The notes beneath the pieces are model-generated. The model saw nothing but the letters and a program-made list of their open reading frames with translations. It made no database searches and had not been told where the DNA came from. This document shows, piece after piece, positions 352-42,535 of a DNA stretch of 42,535 bases. Numbering within the stretch: position 1 is the first letter of the stretch; each line of letters begins with the position of its first letter. Source of the DNA: a virus (lineage: Duplodnaviria; Caudoviricetes); the IMG/VR virus record IMGVR_UViG_3300036783_000100, positions 1 through 42,535 of that record, one strand, 5' to 3'. The translations under genes and the position numbers were made by a program.

Positions 352-605
352 GCGGACTTCTCCTGTCGCTGAGGTTGAGGGGTTGCATTACGGATTTACT
401 TGTCAGCAACGCCCGTAACCTCGGCGGCAGGAGACGCCCGTTAAGCCCGGCGGCGGCTTGCACTGATGACGCGCAGTGCGACGCGGAACGCCCGGTTATT
501 CCCCCGGCGGCGGGGCAGGCACGGCACGCTATTGGTGGGACCGACACACTGGCATGCGCCGGTCCCTAACCAACGGACAGGAGTGACCAAGGCCGTTGGT
601 TATCG
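352..605 (-). ncRNA. Structured capsid mRNA leader (two hairpins, three tandem pseudoknot-like motifs, anti-SD hairpin), allele A
   Basis: Stem-GCCGCCG-stem-linker-GGGCGU occurs 3 times (489-515, 435-459, 410-431). Hairpins 537-566 and 567-602 covary with allele B. Confidence 0.7.
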
Positions 606-5963: not shown

Positions 5964-6665
5964 CTACGCGGCCTCTTGCGGTTGGAGCGTGTGGGTCGGT
6001 GCTGCCCCGCCGCCGGGCGCGGGGTGCGCGTCCGTCGCCTGCTTCACACGCTTTGGATAGGGCTTTGCCAGGGGCGCGATGCGTGCGCGCATTTCGGCAT
6101 CGAGGGGGAGTAAATAGCGGTGCTTAACCCCTGCAACAACACGCGCCGCCCTAGCGTCCACATGAGCGCGAAGCCACGGAACTGACTGACCACCAATCCC
6201 GTATCTAGAATGCAGCGTCTTGGGATGCACCATCACGCCACGCACACGATAAGCGTGTGTCTCGCTGCCTCCTGAGTAAAGCCACCCAGCAGCTTGATAT
6301 ATACCGCCGTGGTGACCTTGTGCTGTATCAGCAAACGACACGATTAGCCTAATTCCTGGGCAACGAGTGCGCAACATCGAAACGGCTATTCGGATAACCC
6401 GAGAAACAGCTGCACTATGCCGTGTCAACGCAATGCGCGTTAACTCGCACACCTGGGTTCCGTTCAGGCCGTATGGTCTGCACAATTCTGGCGTGGCGCC
6501 TTGGCCAAACATCACAGCGCCAACGAATTTGCCATCTTCCCACACGCCTAGCCTAACGGCCTTAAAGACGGGCGTTCTGCGGGAGTAGTGCCAACGCTCG
6601 CAGGCATATCGAGCAGCCGCGTGGCTACACCAATCAAGCCTCAGCTCAAGCTGGGCTGAAGACAT
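5964..6665 (-). CDS. Mom-family DNA (adenine) modification protein, GNAT fold
   Basis: WHYS, ELTRIAL and IVSFADTAQGHHGGIYQAAGWLYSG resemble phage Mu Mom. Start chosen at MSSAQLELRLDW. Confidence 0.75.
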   Translation of the reverse strand: MSSAQLELRLDWCSHAAARYACERWHYSRRTPVFKAVRLGVWEDGKFVGAVMFGQGATPELCRPYGLNGTQVCELTRIALTRHSAAVSRVIRIAVSMLRTRCPGIRLIVSFADTAQGHHGGIYQAAGWLYSGGSETHAYRVRGVMVHPKTLHSRYGIGGQSVPWLRAHVDARAARVVAGVKHRYLLPLDAEMRARIAPLAKPYPKRVKQATDAHPAPGGGAAPTHTLQPQEAA

Positions 6666-7173
6666 GGCCGCACTCTGGGCAGGTAACTGGCGCCCGCTCA
6701 TCAAGCCGCCCCTGTTGATCCTCGCCGACAGGAGCAAAGTCAGGTTCATTCAGTAAATCCGCTAGTTCATCATCGCTGAACCCGATCAGCGACACGTCGA
6801 AGTCCAGGCCACGCAGTGCGTCCAGCTCGCCGGCCAGCAGCGCCTCGTCCCAGCCGGCATTCAGCGCCAGCTTGTTGTCGGCGAGGGCGAGGGCGCGGCG
6901 CTGTGCGTCGGACAGGCCGGCGAGCGTGATGGTCGGCACCTCGGCCATGCCAAGGCTGCGCGCGGCCTCAAGGCGGCCGTGGCCGGCGATGATGGTGGCG
7001 TGCTCGTCGATCAGGATCGGGTTGGTCCAGCCGAACTCACGGACGGAACGAACCAGTTGCGCGATCTGGGCCTGCGAGTGCGTGCGGGCGTTGCGATCGG
7101 CCGGCGCGATTGAAGTAATAGGTGAGTAAATCACCGTAAGTCTTTTAGAATGCTCCAAGAAGTTGCCGCTCAT
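6646..7173 (-). CDS. ParB/Srx N-terminal domain protein with C-terminal Zn-ribbon half motif
   Basis: RNARTHS..QIAQL..S.REFGWTNPILID...IIAGHGRLEAA...ADNKL, ending CPECGHVF. Confidence 0.85.
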   Translation of the reverse strand: MSGNFLEHSKRLTVIYSPITSIAPADRNARTHSQAQIAQLVRSVREFGWTNPILIDEHATIIAGHGRLEAARSLGMAEVPTITLAGLSDAQRRALALADNKLALNAGWDEALLAGELDALRGLDFDVSLIGFSDDELADLLNEPDFAPVGEDQQGRLDERAPVTCPECGHVFSPA

Positions 7174-8223: not shown

Positions 8224-8706
8224 GCCGGAGACGGACACCACGACGCCGGGGTGGCCGGCCAGGGCACCGTGCCGGGCCACACACGCGGCTCCAGGGGCCC
8301 ACAGCTCGCCGGGAGGCGTGAGGGTGCGGCGGGATGCCTCGCCGGCCTGTATCGCCTCCACGGCGCCCGCAGGGGCCATGTTGGGTTTTCCTCCGCTCAC
8401 GATCAGTCGCAGCACGCCGGGGCAGTAGCGGATCGGGGTCCATTGGCCGGTGCCGATGGCCACGAACAGGTAGCCGGTGAAGAGCGGGCGCTCGGTGGTG
8501 TGCCACAGGGTGGGCACTGCGCGGTCGCGGCGGCGGATGGCGATGAGGGGGAGGTAGGTCTGATAGCCGCGGCCGGTGAGGTTGGTGTTAGCCCAGCGCT
8601 CGGCCTGGGGATAGGACTGGACGACGGCCCAAATGCGGCTGCACCCGACGTTAGCGCGGGCTGTTGGCGAGGCTACCGGCACGGATGCGTGAGCGTCAAG
8701 CGGCAT
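8140..8706 (-). CDS. NusG/RfaH-family transcription antiterminator
   Basis: NGN motifs WAVVQS, YLP, PLFTGYLFV, PGVLRLI; KOW-like GALAGHPGVV...ARVAFMLFG. Sits upstream of the late genes. Confidence 0.85.
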   Translation of the reverse strand: MPLDAHASVPVASPTARANVGCSRIWAVVQSYPQAERWANTNLTGRGYQTYLPLIAIRRRDRAVPTLWHTTERPLFTGYLFVAIGTGQWTPIRYCPGVLRLIVSGGKPNMAPAGAVEAIQAGEASRRTLTPPGELWAPGAACVARHGALAGHPGVVVSVSGSEARVAFMLFGALRNVRVPISSLVPRQ

Positions 8707-9133
8707 GGTCATGGTCGTTTGCGGTGTCGGCCGCGGCGTGGGGTTTGGCTTTGCGGGATGGTTTGGGTGTTCGGAGCTTGCGAAGGGCGTCGAGGCGTGC
8801 GGCGGCCAGGGCTTTGAGGCGTTTGATCTCGGCGGCGGCGGCGTCGAGTTGTTGGCGGTACTCGCCGCCACGTGCCCATACGTCCCAGTGGCCGAGCATG
8901 TGATCGGCGACGTCGAACTGGCCGCAGCTGTGGTTGGATCGGGTGGCGGCGTGGATTGGCTGGACGCTGCAGGTGCCTGGCCATCCGACGGCGGTGATGA
9001 CGTGGCCGAGCTTCGCCAGATGGCGGCTGAGGCGGTAGAGGCTGAATGTTTCGCCCTGGTACGGCGGCTGCCAGTTTTCCGGCTGGTTGGGCATCCAGTG
9101 GCGGCACTGGATGCAGTCCCCGTGGTCAGGCAT
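8696..9133 (-). CDS. Hypothetical Cys-rich protein
   Basis: CIQCRHW...GTC...HSCGQF pattern typical of small phage Zn-binding proteins. Confidence 0.65.
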   Translation of the reverse strand: MPDHGDCIQCRHWMPNQPENWQPPYQGETFSLYRLSRHLAKLGHVITAVGWPGTCSVQPIHAATRSNHSCGQFDVADHMLGHWDVWARGGEYRQQLDAAAAEIKRLKALAAARLDALRKLRTPKPSRKAKPHAAADTANDHDHAA

Positions 9134-9229
9134 GGGTCACCGATGCGTGAGCGTCAAGCGGCATTGCCGCCTGCGCCAATTGCGCCAATTCCGCGCCAAT
9201 TCCCCGCCAATTCCGCGCCAATTGGTTGG

Positions 9230-9538
9230 TCATGGGGATGGCCTCTTGGCGAAGTCGACGCGGAGGGCCTTGCGGAGATTTTTCACGGTACGCCCCGGTC
9301 GCCGGTGGGTCTCGCAGAAGCGTGGAGGTTGGCTGAAGCGTGGAGGTTGGCTGATCGTTCTGCCCGTCGCGAAGGTGAAGGCGCTGCCGCAATAGAAACA
9401 TTCAGTTTCCCACTCGATCACGAATGCCGCTTCGCCGTCGTTGCGGACGTATGGGCGCGTGGCTACCGGGCGGTAGATCTGGCCGTCGTGGATGATGCTG
9501 AACCAATCCGGCATGGTGGCGTGAGCGTCAAGCGGCAT
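9230..9538 (-). CDS. Hypothetical protein with CxxC and a duplicated SQPPRF
   Basis: IEWETECFYCG...RFCETHRRPG; 18-bp tandem repeat at about 9317-9354. Start is 9538 or 9514. Confidence 0.6.
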   Translation of the reverse strand: MPLDAHATMPDWFSIIHDGQIYRPVATRPYVRNDGEAAFVIEWETECFYCGSAFTFATGRTISQPPRFSQPPRFCETHRRPGRTVKNLRKALRVDFAKRPSP

Positions 9539-22862: not shown

Positions 22863-22948
22863 GCGCGGCCTCTCCCGTCGAGGCCGCGCTCCGCCGCCGC
22901 GTCACGCGGGCGCGGCCTCTCCCGTCGAGGCCGCGCTCCGCCGCCGCG
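22863..22948. repeat. Tandem 39-bp direct repeat, each unit a GC-rich hairpin
   Basis: GCGCGGCCTC-TCCCGTC-GAGGCCGCGC-TCCGCCGCCGCG at 22863-22901 and 22910-22948. Confidence 0.9.
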
Positions 22949-22950
22949 GC

Positions 22951-25900
22951 TCACCGACGCAATAGCTGATTGGGGATGACGCGCGGCGCCGGCGGCGATG
23001 CCAGGCCGGGCGGCGTAGGGGGCAGCGTCTGTTGCTGGGTCGGACGCAGCGGCGAGGTCAGCGCCAACGCCTGCAACTGCCGTCCGAGCCGCTGCCCCAA
23101 TGACTGCGCCGCGGGCAGGCTCGCCGGGTATTTCTCCAGCATCGTCCTGGCGATCTCGGGATGCATCATCATCTGCTCGACCAGGTCGTTGACCTTCTGC
23201 AGCCCGTTCTGCCGCATTGCGTTGAGGATCGGCACGCCGATCATGCCGGCCACCCTGCCGAGCGGCCCGAGAGCGTGCCCGGCCGCCTCGCCGACCCCCT
23301 CCATCGCGGCGAGCATGCCGACCGTCGACGGGTGACCACCGCCATGCTGCTCGCCGGCCGCAAGGTCTTGTGCGGTGTTGGAGCCGCCCGGCAGCTTGGT
23401 GCCACTAACCGAGCGCTGGGACCGCTGCAAATCAATCGCGGTGTTCTGGATCGCCTCGACCTGCTCGGGCGAAAAAATCTTGCCGAGCGCGCGAGAACTG
23501 TTCTGGATGAACCGCGTGAACTTGTCCGGCTGCAGCATGCGCTCCTGGCCGACCACGGTGTTGCTGCGCAACTCCTGCAGGATGAAATCCACCGCGCCGC
23601 GTTGCAGGCCAGCACGCGCCGCCGGATTGTTGGCTGCGCGCTGCGCCAGGTCAGCCATCGTCGCTTCCGCGGTGTCGGAGCGGAGAATGCGGCCAATCGT
23701 GATGGTCGGATCGGCATCGCCCAGGAACCGCCGTGCCGCCGAATCCTCGATCGCGGTCCTCGCTGCCTGATGCCGGACCACGGCGTCGTCGACCAGTTGC
23801 CGCTGTTGCGCGGCATCGGCAAACCGCGCCCTCAGCTCAGGGAATGCCGACAGCGCCTCGTCATGCGCAGCCAGCCAACGCTGGGCCCTGGCAGGGCTGA
23901 GCGTTCCGTCCGCCTCCTCGGCGGCGTGGCGCAGGCTGAACGCGGCATAATCCTTCAGATCGCTGACCAGCGCCGGGCTGCTGCCGCCGGCGCGCATGAA
24001 CGCCTGCACGCGCTCCGCGGCGCCCTTGCCGCTGTTGAAGAGTGTAGCCGCCACCTGGCTGTCGCCCAACCGCCATTCGCCGGCCCGTCGTCCTGTGCCA
24101 AGCACCGCGCCGACGCCGGGGGCCTCGTCATAGGTTGCCACGCGCTCGGCGTGCGCCGCATTGGCGTCGCGATACCGCGCGATTGCCTCTGGATCGTAGT
24201 TAGGCTCGAGCGGCGCTGACCTGCCGGGAGCGAGGCCCCATTTCTGGGCTAGAGCTGCTGCCGCAGCCGCCACATCGCGATTGCCTCCAGATGGTCCTGG
24301 TAGCCCTCTCGGCGTGACCTGGTTTCCAGCGCCGCCAGGTATTTGAGGCGCGCCGCCGGGTCCGTGATAGCCGCCAGGTTGACCTCCAGCAGGTCGAGGT
24401 ATGGCGCCTTGCCCTGGGAATACAGGATTGCCAACGCCTCCGACCTGCTGTGTGCCATCGCCCTGACCCGCCTTCAGACGGCCCAGCATAGTCTGTTCGG
24501 GAGTGGCATGACCAGCCTGGACAGCCGCGGCGTCGGACGCGGCGCGCTGCTCGACGCCGCCGGACAGGGTGTTGTCGACCGCCTTCTGCAACTGAACCAG
24601 CGTCCGGTAGGTCGTCGAGCGGCCGTTATTGTAGAGTTCCTCCCGCATCGCGTCGGTGATGCGCGAGCGCAGCGCCGCGGCCTCGCCAAACAACTGCGTT
24701 TCGGGCAGGCCCTGGGCGGTGCGGAAAATGCCCGCGGCATCGCCGCTTAGTGGTGCGGCATTGGCAGGTCGGGCACCCACGATGTCGTTGGCGGCCTGCC
24801 GGATCGGCGTCATGCCGAGCGCCAGCGTGCCGTCCGGGTCAACGTCCGTGTAGAGCTTCGACACCTGCGCGCGCGTCCCGGTGTTGAGCGCATCGAGGCC
24901 GGCGCGCAGGCGCTGGCCAAACCCTTGAAGCACCGAAGTTGAATTGGCATCGCCCAGCGGCGCCGCGCCGCCCAGGTTGTTGACGGCCTCGCGGGCGCCG
25001 GTGCGTGCCGCATCGATCTGCGCGGTGTGGGCCGCGTCGATGTCGGACAACTGCTGACGGAAGAACCCGCCGACGGCATCGGGCGATGCGGTCTCGGGCG
25101 CCATGCCGCCGATGGCGTTGACCCGCGCCTGGTTCTGCTCGCCGAGCCTGGCCATCCAGACATCCGGGCTGTTCTTGGCGACCACGCGCTCGAGGTTGCC
25201 GAGGCCCTGGTCGCCGGTCAGTTGGAAGGTGGTGGGCTGCGAGCCAGGGACGAGCGGCGGCTGGTCCTCGGCAAGTGTGGCGCGCACCTCCGGCAGATTG
25301 CTGGCGGCCCCGCCGACCCGCGCGGCCGCGAGCCGTTGCTGTCCCGTCGCATACATCGGCGCCACGTAGTCGCCGATCTTCCCGCCGAGGGTGTTGACGG
25401 CTGTTCTGCCGGCGCCGGCCGCGAGGCCGGCCACCCCGCCAGCCAACAATTGGCCGCCGAACTGTGCGAGCGGCTTATACGGTTCCGGCACGGCATTGGC
25501 GGCGATCTGACCACCAGCGCCGGCAGTGCCGCCAATGACCGCCTGTGACGGCGCACCACCGGCCCCGAAGGACCGCTGGAAGGCCCCGGGAATGCCGGCC
25601 AGCACTGGCAAAGCGCGCGCGACGCCCCACGGCAGGATCATTGAGGCGGTGCCCCCGCCGGCGGCGCGCGCGATCTGCTCGGCCTCGTCGCCTGGCACGA
25701 TCGTCCGGGGATCGGCGCCGAGATAGCCGAACGCCGATTTCCACCACTCCGACCCGCCCACCGGGTTCTGGATGGTGGGATGCTGCGTGTCGGTTGCCGC
25801 GTTGATAGCGCGCGGCACGAGGTTGATGGCGCCGGTCATAAGATCGACCGGCAGGCCGAGAAATTCTGCGGTTTTCTCACTGGTGCCGGCGCCGTAATTG

Positions 25901-40847: not shown

Positions 40848-42210
40848 TTATGCGTCGGCCACGGCGGTGGTGAAGATGGTGAATATGCCGTTGTCGACCG
40901 GCTTCGTTGTGTCCACCGTCGGATCAACACCGAAGCGCAGTTTGCCGATGCCGCGGATTTCCTGCAGACCGACGCCGTGCATATATCCGTAGTCACGGGT
41001 ATTGGTCGTGGACTTCATCCGCTGCGCCCATGCGCAACCCAATGCCTGCGCGCCGCACAGGAACGAGGCCGCGACATCGACGCCGCCGGCACCGGCACCG
41101 GAAATGGTGACCAATTCGGGGATCTCACGGATGATGATGCCGTCGTAAATCAGGTCGCCACCGGTAAACAGCGGGTTATCCGTCCCGCGGTTCCACGCAT
41201 ATTGCAGCGCGTTGGTCAGCACCGGGTCGAGCAGCAGATCGCGAAACACCAGGCTCGGCATGAAGCAGACGAACCATTCCTCGTCGTCGTTGACGGTGAT
41301 GGGGCGGATGCGCGGATTGGCGGTGCGTGCCATGCGCTTGGCCAGCGTGAGGATCGCGGTGCTCATGCGGTCGCCTGGCGATGCCAGTGTGAGCAGCGCG
41401 GTCGCCATGACGCCGGATGCCGCGTTGGCCTTCTGGTGGCCGAACAGCACGCGGTCGGCGTTGTTGACCATCCACGTATTGCGCTGGCCGGCGGTGGCCG
41501 CGCCGTAGCTCACCTGCACGTTGTTGTCGGCGGTCATCGCCCCGAACGAGGTGATGATGTCCGTCCGCATCTTCTCGAGTTCCCAGGTCATCAGCGCCTC
41601 GCGCGCTGCCTCCCTGAGATCGACCACCGACTTCTGCTCGTCCCAATCACTCACCGCGACGGCGTGCCGGAAGGCACTGACGACGAGGTTCATCGAGCGG
41701 AGGTTGAGGATTTCCTCATTGCCCTCCAAAATGGTGTTGCCAGTAACGCCCGCGCCAACCAGCCGCCGCAGCGCGGGGAAGACGACGGTGTCGCCGGATT
41801 TGCGGGTGAGATCCTCGCGCACCTGGATCAATGATCCGGTGCTGGTTCCCATGTATTTCGCGAACTGATTTCGCTTTGCCTTCGCGCCGGATCGCTAGTC
41901 CGACACCGCCCTGCCGGGGCTGCTACCGATCGCTCGGTAGATGAGACCATATCACCACCCACTTGGGGTGCCGGGCGCTTCGGGCCGCTTGGCCCTACGA
42001 GCTTTCGCTCTGGTCGTTGCACCTTCCGCCTTGCGGCGGCTTGGCTCAGGATTGTCTGCGAGAGAGGTTCCCTGAGTTCACCCGGTTATCGACATCCATT
42101 ACTGGACGAAGGCGCCGAAGCAGTTAACGCACATATTCGCTAAAAAAATCCGAATCCCATATAAGTGGAGTTAGCCCTTGTCTGGCCGGCGTCACGTTCA
42201 TGTCTGCCAA
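40848..42210 (-). CDS. Major capsid protein (N4-gp56/DUF4043-like), split: exon 1 42127-42210, exon 2 40848-41873; 369 aa spliced
   Basis: IQVREDLTRKSGDTV, LEGNEE, RHAV, NPLFTG, LCGAQA motifs. Joining the exons reproduces the 1-351 allele exactly (TTG start, AAGGA SD). Confidence 0.92.
41874..42126 (-). ncRNA. Group I self-splicing intron (253 nt, no ORF, with P7.1/P7.2, IA-like)
   Basis: Exon ends in U and intron ends in G. P1 with U.G, P10, P3 CCGGGUG/CGCCCGG, P4 CUCAGG/CCUGAG, P7 GACCA/UGGUC, P8 and P9 can all be paired. Absent from allele A. Confidence 0.93.
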
Positions 42211-42455
42211 CGGAGTGTTCCTTTACTTCGAGGTTACGGGGTTGCTTCGGATATTTACTTGTCGGCAACGCCCGTAACCTCGGCGGCAGGAGACGCCCGT
42301 TAAGCCCGGCGGCGGCTTGCACTGATGACGCGCAGTGCGACGCGGAACGCCCGTTGCCCCCGGCGGCGGGGTAGGCACTTAGGCGAGGCCGGCGCCGCGC
42401 CAACAGCAGCCGGCCTCTAACCAACGCGAGGGAGTGAAGCCCGCGCTGGTTTTCG
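42211..42455 (-). ncRNA. Structured capsid mRNA leader, allele B
   Basis: Same three motifs (42348-42371, 42294-42318, 42269-42290). Flanking hairpins are diverged in sequence but keep their pairing. Confidence 0.7.
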
Positions 42456-42535
42456 CTACGCCTGGCGCCGCGCGTGCTGCGGCCTACGCAGGATGTCGTC
42501 CATTGAGGGCGGCCCGGTGAACGCCGTTGTGGTCC
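42456..42535 (-). CDS. Scaffolding protein 3' end (duplicate of 606-685)
   Basis: Identical to the end of the scaffold gene. Confidence 0.85.
   Translation of the reverse strand, partial: TTTAFTGPPSMDDILRRPQHARRQA

Follow-up and report, generated by a model that had tools for sequence, protein, structure and literature searches.

In the rpsO operator of Escherichia coli, the leader RNA interconverts between a pseudoknot and a hairpin form, and S15 binds the pseudoknot only and represses (PMC3985624). The phage capsid leader described here shares such an interconversion, but its pseudoknot is predicted to free the Shine-Dalgarno sequence (SD), its pseudoknot units are smaller and arranged in tandem, and its hairpin is far more stable than that of rpsO. 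The gene 32 operator of phages T4 and T2 contains a pseudoknot, 67 nt upstream of the start codon in T4, and represses by cooperative coating; a 2010 review, in its section on this operator, regards it as possibly the sole viral example of a pseudoknot in translational autoregulation (PMC3014915). In the present leader a pseudoknot is likewise found tens of bases upstream (its tail ends 58 nt upstream of the start), but the gene 32 leader as outlined in that section has a single pseudoknot, an unstructured A+U-rich spacer and no SD-hiding hairpin. A gene 32-type operator was rejected for the present locus because the spacer is not unstructured here, but forms a -36 kcal/mol hairpin together with the unit.

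Translational ON riboswitch platforms use a small pseudoknot aptamer and strand invasion; their last structured unit overlaps the anti-SD helix, and nucleation takes place 3' of the pseudoknot. The leaders studied here differ from them in having no Rfam match, in preceding structural rather than metabolic genes, and in carrying arrays of two to about seven units. Among phage head genes, the scaffolding protein of P22 has been implicated in translational autoregulation as a negative control (bioRxiv 2022.12.13.520362, passage on P22). This ties translational control to head assembly, as may be the case here, where the commonest site of the motif is a scaffold leader; however, that passage describes negative control only and mentions no RNA operator. 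The GP20-a and GP20-b motifs and csRNAs located upstream of GP20 or capsid genes are treated, in the relevant part of PMC10690425, as candidate cis-regulatory RNAs; they resemble the present leaders in preceding phage head-related genes, but give no Rfam match to them. The leader reported here resembles the pseudoknot-versus-hairpin operators, yet it belongs to none of these systems in the tests applied. To our knowledge, protein-activated translational switches are rare among phages, and the matching of capsid to scaffold output in tailed phages is poorly understood.

The window analyzed in this study is the whole 42,535-bp stretch of IMG/VR record IMGVR_UViG_3300036783_000100. Its layout is that of a podovirus-like phage with genes on the minus strand, comprising terminase, portal (phrog_156), a scaffold gene and the major capsid gene (phrog_334, PF13252); the features under discussion are listed in Table 1. 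The scaffold gene gave no match in PHROG and Pfam searches, and its assignment comes from phmmer. The two ends of the window are diverged copies of one scaffold-capsid junction, 1-685 (allele A) and 41607-42535 (allele B), which are ~85-98% identical by segment. This diverged end repeat points to either two strains joined in one contig or one recombinant genome with terminal redundancy. The capsid gene of allele B contains a group I intron after codon 28, with a 5' exon ending in U and an intron ending in G, and allele A has no intron. In three of 11 loci scanned, related capsid genes carry a group I intron at another site, close to their 3' end (L024, 3372-3594; L032, 3349-3568; L079, 3353-3578). 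The hairpins that follow the scaffold stop have a structure common to both alleles, while their sequence differs in the alignment of the two copies. Elsewhere, the window contains a Mom-like DNA modification gene (phrog_1384; 5964-6749, minus strand) adjoining a ParB-like gene and the small terminase, three copies of a ~22-nt repeat close to small genes (family D12; 8665-8706, 9123-9164 and 9497-9538), and a 47-nt tandem pair with a hairpin (D17; 22863-22956).

Table 1. Features of the two scaffold-capsid junctions in the window
Feature	Position	Strand	Evidence
Major capsid gene, allele A, 5' part	1-351	minus	phrog_334
Small hairpin with start AUG (351-349) in its three-base loop, allele A	343-357	minus	folding
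3' arm of competing hairpin, ending in SD AGGAG (364-360), allele A	360-386	minus	folding
UUGC immediately 3' of the unit 3 tail, predicted toehold	406-409	minus	92% column identity in 16 leaders; toehold role putative
Last pseudoknot unit (unit 3), also 5' arm of competing hairpin; CUCCU is the anti-SD	410-433	minus	motif pattern, folding
Pseudoknot unit 2	435-459	minus	motif pattern
Variant pseudoknot unit: 4-bp stem, loop ending GCACUG, tail CAGUGC	460-485	minus	direct reading of sequence
Pseudoknot unit 1: P1 stem, loop GCCGCCG, tail CGGGCG	489-515	minus	motif pattern; covariation across relatives
Two stable hairpins between scaffold stop and array	537-602 (allele A), about 42385-42450 (allele B)	minus	z -4.2 in A, -2.9 in B
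Scaffolding-protein gene, 290 aa, upstream of capsid leader	606-1478	minus	phmmer to annotated Pam5 scaffolding protein E 6.9e-11, Pam1 E 1.2e-4
Major capsid gene, allele B, 3' exon	40848-41873	minus	phrog_334, PF13252
ORF-less group I intron, 253 nt, in allele B capsid gene	41874-42126	minus	Rfam RF00028, 60.5 bits; ends from alignment of both copies
17-pair hairpin, allele B; destroys unit 3, ends upstream of SD (42223-42219); start UUG 42210-42208	42229-42282	minus	folding
Pseudoknot array, allele B	42269-42371	minus	alignment, motif pattern

The first-pass annotation of this DNA had placed three tandem pseudoknot units in the leader. All three are present, and a fourth, sequence-variant unit is readable between units 1 and 2. 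Relatives contain a variant akin to it, whose loop is ACCGCUG and whose tail is CAGCG. The unit consensus consists of a stem, a loop G(C/U)CGCCG, the second strand of the stem, a linker and a tail CGGGCG. Searches with the capsid yielded 160 loci, in 155 of which a capsid start with usable upstream sequence could be placed; with alleles A and B, these gave 92 representatives. The majority of the representative capsid leaders hold an array of this kind, and the units cluster within 250 nt before the capsid start, with 427 in sense and two in antisense orientation. In 203 distinct units the closing pair of P1 is C-G (115), U-A (40), U.G (24), G-C (13), A-U (3) or A.C or C.A (2), and P1 positions 2 and 3 are Watson-Crick in 169 and 165 of 198 units. 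In P2, where the counts admit at most one departure from consensus per strand, pairing is kept in eight of nine variants between loop base 4 and tail base 5 (A-U 3, C-G 2, G.U 3), in six of eight between loop base 5 and tail base 4, and in just one of six between loop base 6 and tail base 2. The unpaired first base of the loop, G1, is fixed in 201/203. Read from the sequences, these pairing changes in P1 and P2 support an H-type pseudoknot on the mRNA strand. A DNA site for a protein was considered for the units and rejected, because their spacing varies and the P1 pairs covary, U.G included.

The units belong to no Rfam 15 family tested (riboswitches, GP20-a/b, STAXI, ToxI and others). In the whole window the group I intron was the sole family match; the region 300-650, searched to E 10, gave only generic hairpin matches far below threshold, and twelve related loci searched to E 1 gave one sub-threshold match, outside the units. 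Comparison of the leader with cultured phages by blastn returned only short pieces at the level of chance. A literature search found no description of the motif within its scope, which lay outside the supplement of Weinberg 2017 (PMC5737381) and three files of Fremin 2023 (PMC10690425) that could list the unit. By eye, variant pseudoknots are apparent in the capsid leaders of the cultured phages RHph_Y1_10 (L172, about 1270-1399), KLEP18-1 (L174, about 1300-1402) and KPP25 (L175, about 1250-1381), and a long hairpin over the SD is predicted in that of KLEP18-1.

In allele A, unit 3 pairs with the strand that contains the SD, as had been claimed. The 15 of 17 outer pairs and an 8-pair inner stem form a hairpin of 25 pairs (433 to 360, minus strand) with a minimum free energy (MFE) of -36.3 kcal/mol and z of -5.96, and none of 200 shuffles was equally stable. 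The helix consumes P1, the loop and the P2 tail of unit 3, so that pseudoknot and hairpin are mutually exclusive, and AGGAG is paired within the predicted hairpin; on both points the earlier reading stands. ViennaRNA folds no pseudoknots, and the held state was represented by forbidding the unit bases to pair; the predicted cost of opening the SD window then drops from 13.2 to 4.5 kcal/mol. However, the hairpin lies ~23 kcal/mol below the pseudoknot state (-46.1 versus about -23.0), which makes an equilibrium switch implausible, and any switch must therefore be kinetic. No intrinsic terminator was found on the minus strand of 300-1700, and the hairpin is followed by purines. An intrinsic terminator or attenuator was rejected because of the missing U-tract.

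Allele B presents a different situation. Its downstream strand, although different in sequence, still pairs as had been noticed, and the resulting 17-pair stem (z -5.98) destroys the unit. The additional pairing of UCCU with the SD AGGA that the first-pass annotation had described appears only in transcripts ending before about codon 2; when 15 nt of coding sequence are included, the fold favors CUGCC with the start-codon region instead. Holding the unit makes no difference to how costly the SD window is predicted to be to open (3.9 versus 4.5 kcal/mol; 10.2 versus 11.3 kcal/mol for the window from -15 to +6). The proposal that both alleles keep an alternative fold that hides the ribosome-binding site is thus borne out in two different degrees: a unit-destroying stem exists in A and B, but burial of the SD is predicted for allele A and not for allele B.

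Is the competing pairing a property of the family? We examined 64 representatives with at least two units whose last unit lies 55-80 nt from the start. The last unit pairs with the downstream strand at z < -2 in 44 of these, compared with 22 of 64 for the penultimate unit. The predicted ON gain could be calculated for 67 of the 92 capsid leaders (the remaining ones have no unit in range) and for 44 of 60 scaffold leaders. It reaches at least 5 kcal/mol in 25/67 capsid leaders versus 1/44 scaffold leaders. Burial of the SD is thereby predicted for roughly one third of the relatives; the gain is smaller than 5 kcal/mol in 42 of the 67 capsid leaders and below 3 kcal/mol in 29; among the cases with no gain are allele B (-0.5) and L018 (-1.1). 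The median for capsid leaders, 3.9 kcal/mol, falls to 0.6 kcal/mol when the spacer is shuffled, and seven of 67 shuffled-spacer controls still reach 5 kcal/mol. Two exclusive folds with a hidden SD, as expected of a riboswitch or a protein-responsive ON control, are hence predicted in allele A and in those 25 leaders, but not in allele B.

The SD is hidden in three different layouts, with the anti-SD in the 5' strand of P1 (A type, 16 of 92 leaders), in the linker (7), or in the loop and the 3' strand of P1 up to the start (5); the remaining leaders are of a weaker GCGAC type (29) or other (35). These types mix on a capsid tree that was built quickly, has very long branches to the outgroup and omits nine representatives with short sequence; it serves only to show this interspersion. 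An identical capsid protein was found with two leader types, suggesting leader exchange. Units generally fit the arms of their own type: the mean duplex of A-type units is -34.9 on their own arms versus -16.6 on linker-type arms, and that of linker-type units is -28.0 on their own arms versus -20.5 on A-type arms. L025-type units, in contrast, fit L153-type arms (-27.5) better than their own (-25.4). In locus L024, loop, tail and 3' arm are altered together. Apart from the SD, the outer 3' arm seems to serve no purpose other than this pairing, yet its identity across the 16 A-type leaders is 92%, whereas the hairpin loop reaches 63% and the spacer from SD to start 49%. Columns 11 and 23, which are paired in the pseudoknot and mismatched or bulged in the hairpin, are invariant in all 16. 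Similarly, in eight aligned linker-type leaders the P1 5' strand and the loop lie outside the hairpin, yet they are 95% identical. Covariation within the A-type hairpin does not exceed that of shuffles (2 of 17 pairs change both sides, and 92 to 335 of 500 shuffles match the observed value), because the unit hardly varies. The conservation pattern and the cross-type fit thus favor both folds, while formal covariation within one type stays at shuffle level. From these comparisons both folds look selected, on the mRNA strand.

In L026, an opposite-strand insert (1022-1549), identified as an HNH-AP2 endonuclease gene by Pfam, directly follows the tail of the last unit. Similar inserts between array and capsid gene occur in L031, L035, L042, L060, L066, L084, L089, L091, L109, L133 and L136, the Pfam check having been made on L026 alone. 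These 12 loci mostly lose the pairing (-11.4 to -21.1 versus -15.7 to -31.5 in six hand-picked relatives), and capsid can therefore apparently be made without the switch. The loss of complementarity fits a local role for the 3' arm, and the insert itself may have replaced that arm. In RHph_Y1_10 and KLEP18-1, too, an HNH gene lies ahead of the capsid gene. The capsid start codons of the 92 representatives are AUG (47), UUG (23), GUG (16), AUC (5) and CUG (1). Codon 4 is AUG in all 90 capsid genes checked, and codons 2-3 vary synonymously.

The unit is also found before scaffold genes. A pattern scan of viral contigs returned 122 loci out of an estimated 2000 or so stretches, chance matches included; this loose tandem pattern yields mostly chance hits, with two or more units in 16/122. 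In 41 of the 122, the next open reading frame is homologous to the scaffolding proteins of the window and of Pam1/Pam5, and at least seven lead to capsid genes. We also assembled a motif-blind set, selected solely for similarity to the Pam5 capsid since the scaffold alignment was too diverged for seeding, and in it the unit is present in 48 of 60 distinct scaffold leaders versus one of 63 capsid leaders. In 23 of the 48 unit-bearing leaders, a unit tail lies within 20 nt of the scaffold start. The capsid gene in this set usually begins within ~15 nt of the scaffold stop. Each of the cultured phages Pam1 and Pam5 has two units in front of its scaffold gene, and CBW1004C-Prop1 carries variants. 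In the clade of the window, scaffold and capsid genes are separated, the capsid gene is preceded by an array of its own, and most scaffold genes have no units; L139, L140, L148 and L150 have units before both genes. The array is thus placed before the scaffold gene where capsid is tightly coupled to it, and before the capsid gene where it is not. The scaffold leaders, which look ancestral, have the motif without an SD-hiding hairpin. The scaffold proteins are 18-39% identical, while the unit sequence is nearly constant. Among 52 scaffold leaders in L428-L507, 16 have a terminator-like hairpin with a U-tract no more than 60 nt upstream of their first unit, so that a promoter would hardly fit in between. 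A small CGU-N-ACG hairpin separates the last unit from the SD in several scaffold leaders.

Sequence and comparison provide the unit, its pairing variants, its placement ahead of scaffold and capsid genes, its overlap with the hairpin and the conservation pattern of both folds. On this basis our leading, still tentative, interpretation is that the capsid leader acts as a translational ON switch under kinetic control, in which the last unit is held by a candidate bound factor, and we put its probability at roughly 45%. By the predicted order of folding, the last unit would form first during transcription; the nested hairpin would then nucleate at the predicted toehold UUGC/GCAA and invade through the P2 tail, P1 and the loop as far as the SD, whose opening energies are likewise predicted. 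A candidate factor bound to the unit would stall this zippering long enough for ribosomes to load. In length-stepped folding, which uses a rough pseudoknot estimate of -6 to -9 kcal/mol, the unit is preferred as long as the transcript stops short of about 34 nt (allele A) or 26 nt (allele B) before the start codon; in longer transcripts nested folds win. As to the ligand, we infer that it would most plausibly be a phage head-assembly protein, for example free scaffold, which the units next to scaffold SDs and the precedent of P22 make a natural candidate. However, the near-constancy of the unit in the face of such diverged scaffold proteins is explained no less well by a host factor or by a role that is purely structural. 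The riboswitch-like platform releasing capsid translation that the first-pass annotation had envisaged is accordingly retained in part: two competing folds that look selected and burial of the SD in a subset of leaders speak for it, while allele B, the 42 leaders with little gain and the energy gap of allele A speak against it.

Part of this evidence could also be accommodated without a ligand, if the pseudoknot merely delayed the hairpin so that ribosomes load on the nascent mRNA and the hairpin later shuts the message, limiting the capsid made per transcript. The conservation evidence suits such a timer equally well, and the large energy gap, the graded hairpin strength between lineages and the frequent weak capsid starts (UUG, GUG, AUC and CUG) would all be accounted for. 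We nevertheless consider it rather unlikely, since it leaves unexplained why there should be several near-identical units with fixed unpaired bases such as loop G1, and there would seem to be no reason to damp the most abundant virion protein without a signal. A role in mRNA processing or stability, in which the pseudoknots act as obstacles that protect the head mRNA against scanning by RNase E, while cleavage of the long hairpin by RNase III frees the SD or triggers decay, seems improbable. According to the relevant part of PMC9943677, RNase E scanning is impeded by H-type pseudoknots of 8-15 coaxial pairs, and conversion to a hairpin nearly abolishes the effect; the units studied here, with ~8-10 pairs, stand at the short, least protective end of the series given there. 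The array does track the capsid-bearing message, the near-perfect 17-pair stem of allele B does spare the SD, and the modeled helix length in A and B would be compatible with a candidate RNase III site of about two turns, but many hairpins are short or much interrupted, and cleavage would not need the SD to be targeted repeatedly by different arms. A now functionless remnant of an inverted duplication of the last unit is a very unlikely source of the complementarity: the shuffle-level covariation of the A type and the weak or absent effect in many leaders would agree with it, but three different pairings reach the SD, and the 3' arm is far more conserved than the adjoining loop and spacer.

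Selection of the hairpin on the opposite strand, as antisense RNA or single-stranded DNA, was raised by the caveat that the two allele A mismatches are C.A on the mRNA strand but would be G.U on the other. As a description this is correct (plus-strand MFE -60.1 versus -48.8 in allele A), and in relatives the plus (antisense) strand has the lower MFE in 58 of 64 leaders, with 36 C.A and four G.U among the single mismatches of the 31 best-paired leaders. The argument weakens after shuffling: the downstream strand is rich in C and A, shuffled controls reproduce most of the strand bias (-3.2 of -4.9 kcal/mol), and z is alike on both strands (mean -3.23 sense versus -3.44 antisense, with antisense lower in 38/64). 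The recurring C.A positions are largely the same two inherited sites, opposite unit loop bases 2 and 6, of which base 2 alternates between C and U among lineages. Mismatches at these two bases may be favored, since a fully complementary strand would base-pair with the loops of the units farther upstream as well. The sense strand pairs better in L020, L024, L064 and L153, linker- and loop-type leaders among them; the closing pairs of unit stems, with U.G in 24 but A.C or C.A in just two of 203 units, likewise argue for the mRNA strand, and a search of both strands of 300-1700 for sigma-70-like promoters found none. We therefore judge selection on the opposite strand highly improbable. Type III antitoxin repeats are pseudoknots, and the array could in principle be a ToxI-like decoy against type III toxin-antitoxin defense. 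Type III antitoxins are indeed RNA repeats, but the units have no Rfam match, their spacers vary and their position is fixed before the start codons of head genes, and we give this explanation next to no credence.

The switch interpretation has one possible extension, which we regard as unlikely: that a single motif is wired both ways, as a site for a head-assembly protein that represses at the scaffold SD and, through the anti-SD hairpin, activates capsid. Nature provides variants in which the hairpin is kept, absent, rebuilt in three ways or split by an HNH gene, and the motif is present in cultured phages. If the capsid leader is controlled by a ligand, it would represent a new phage riboregulator with a binding module of ~30 nt; otherwise, it is still a new conserved leader family. 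If the two-way wiring were true, free scaffold would lower its own synthesis and raise that of capsid, and the resulting RNA circuit would determine the stoichiometry of the procapsid throughout a large podovirus family that includes Pam1 and Pam5.
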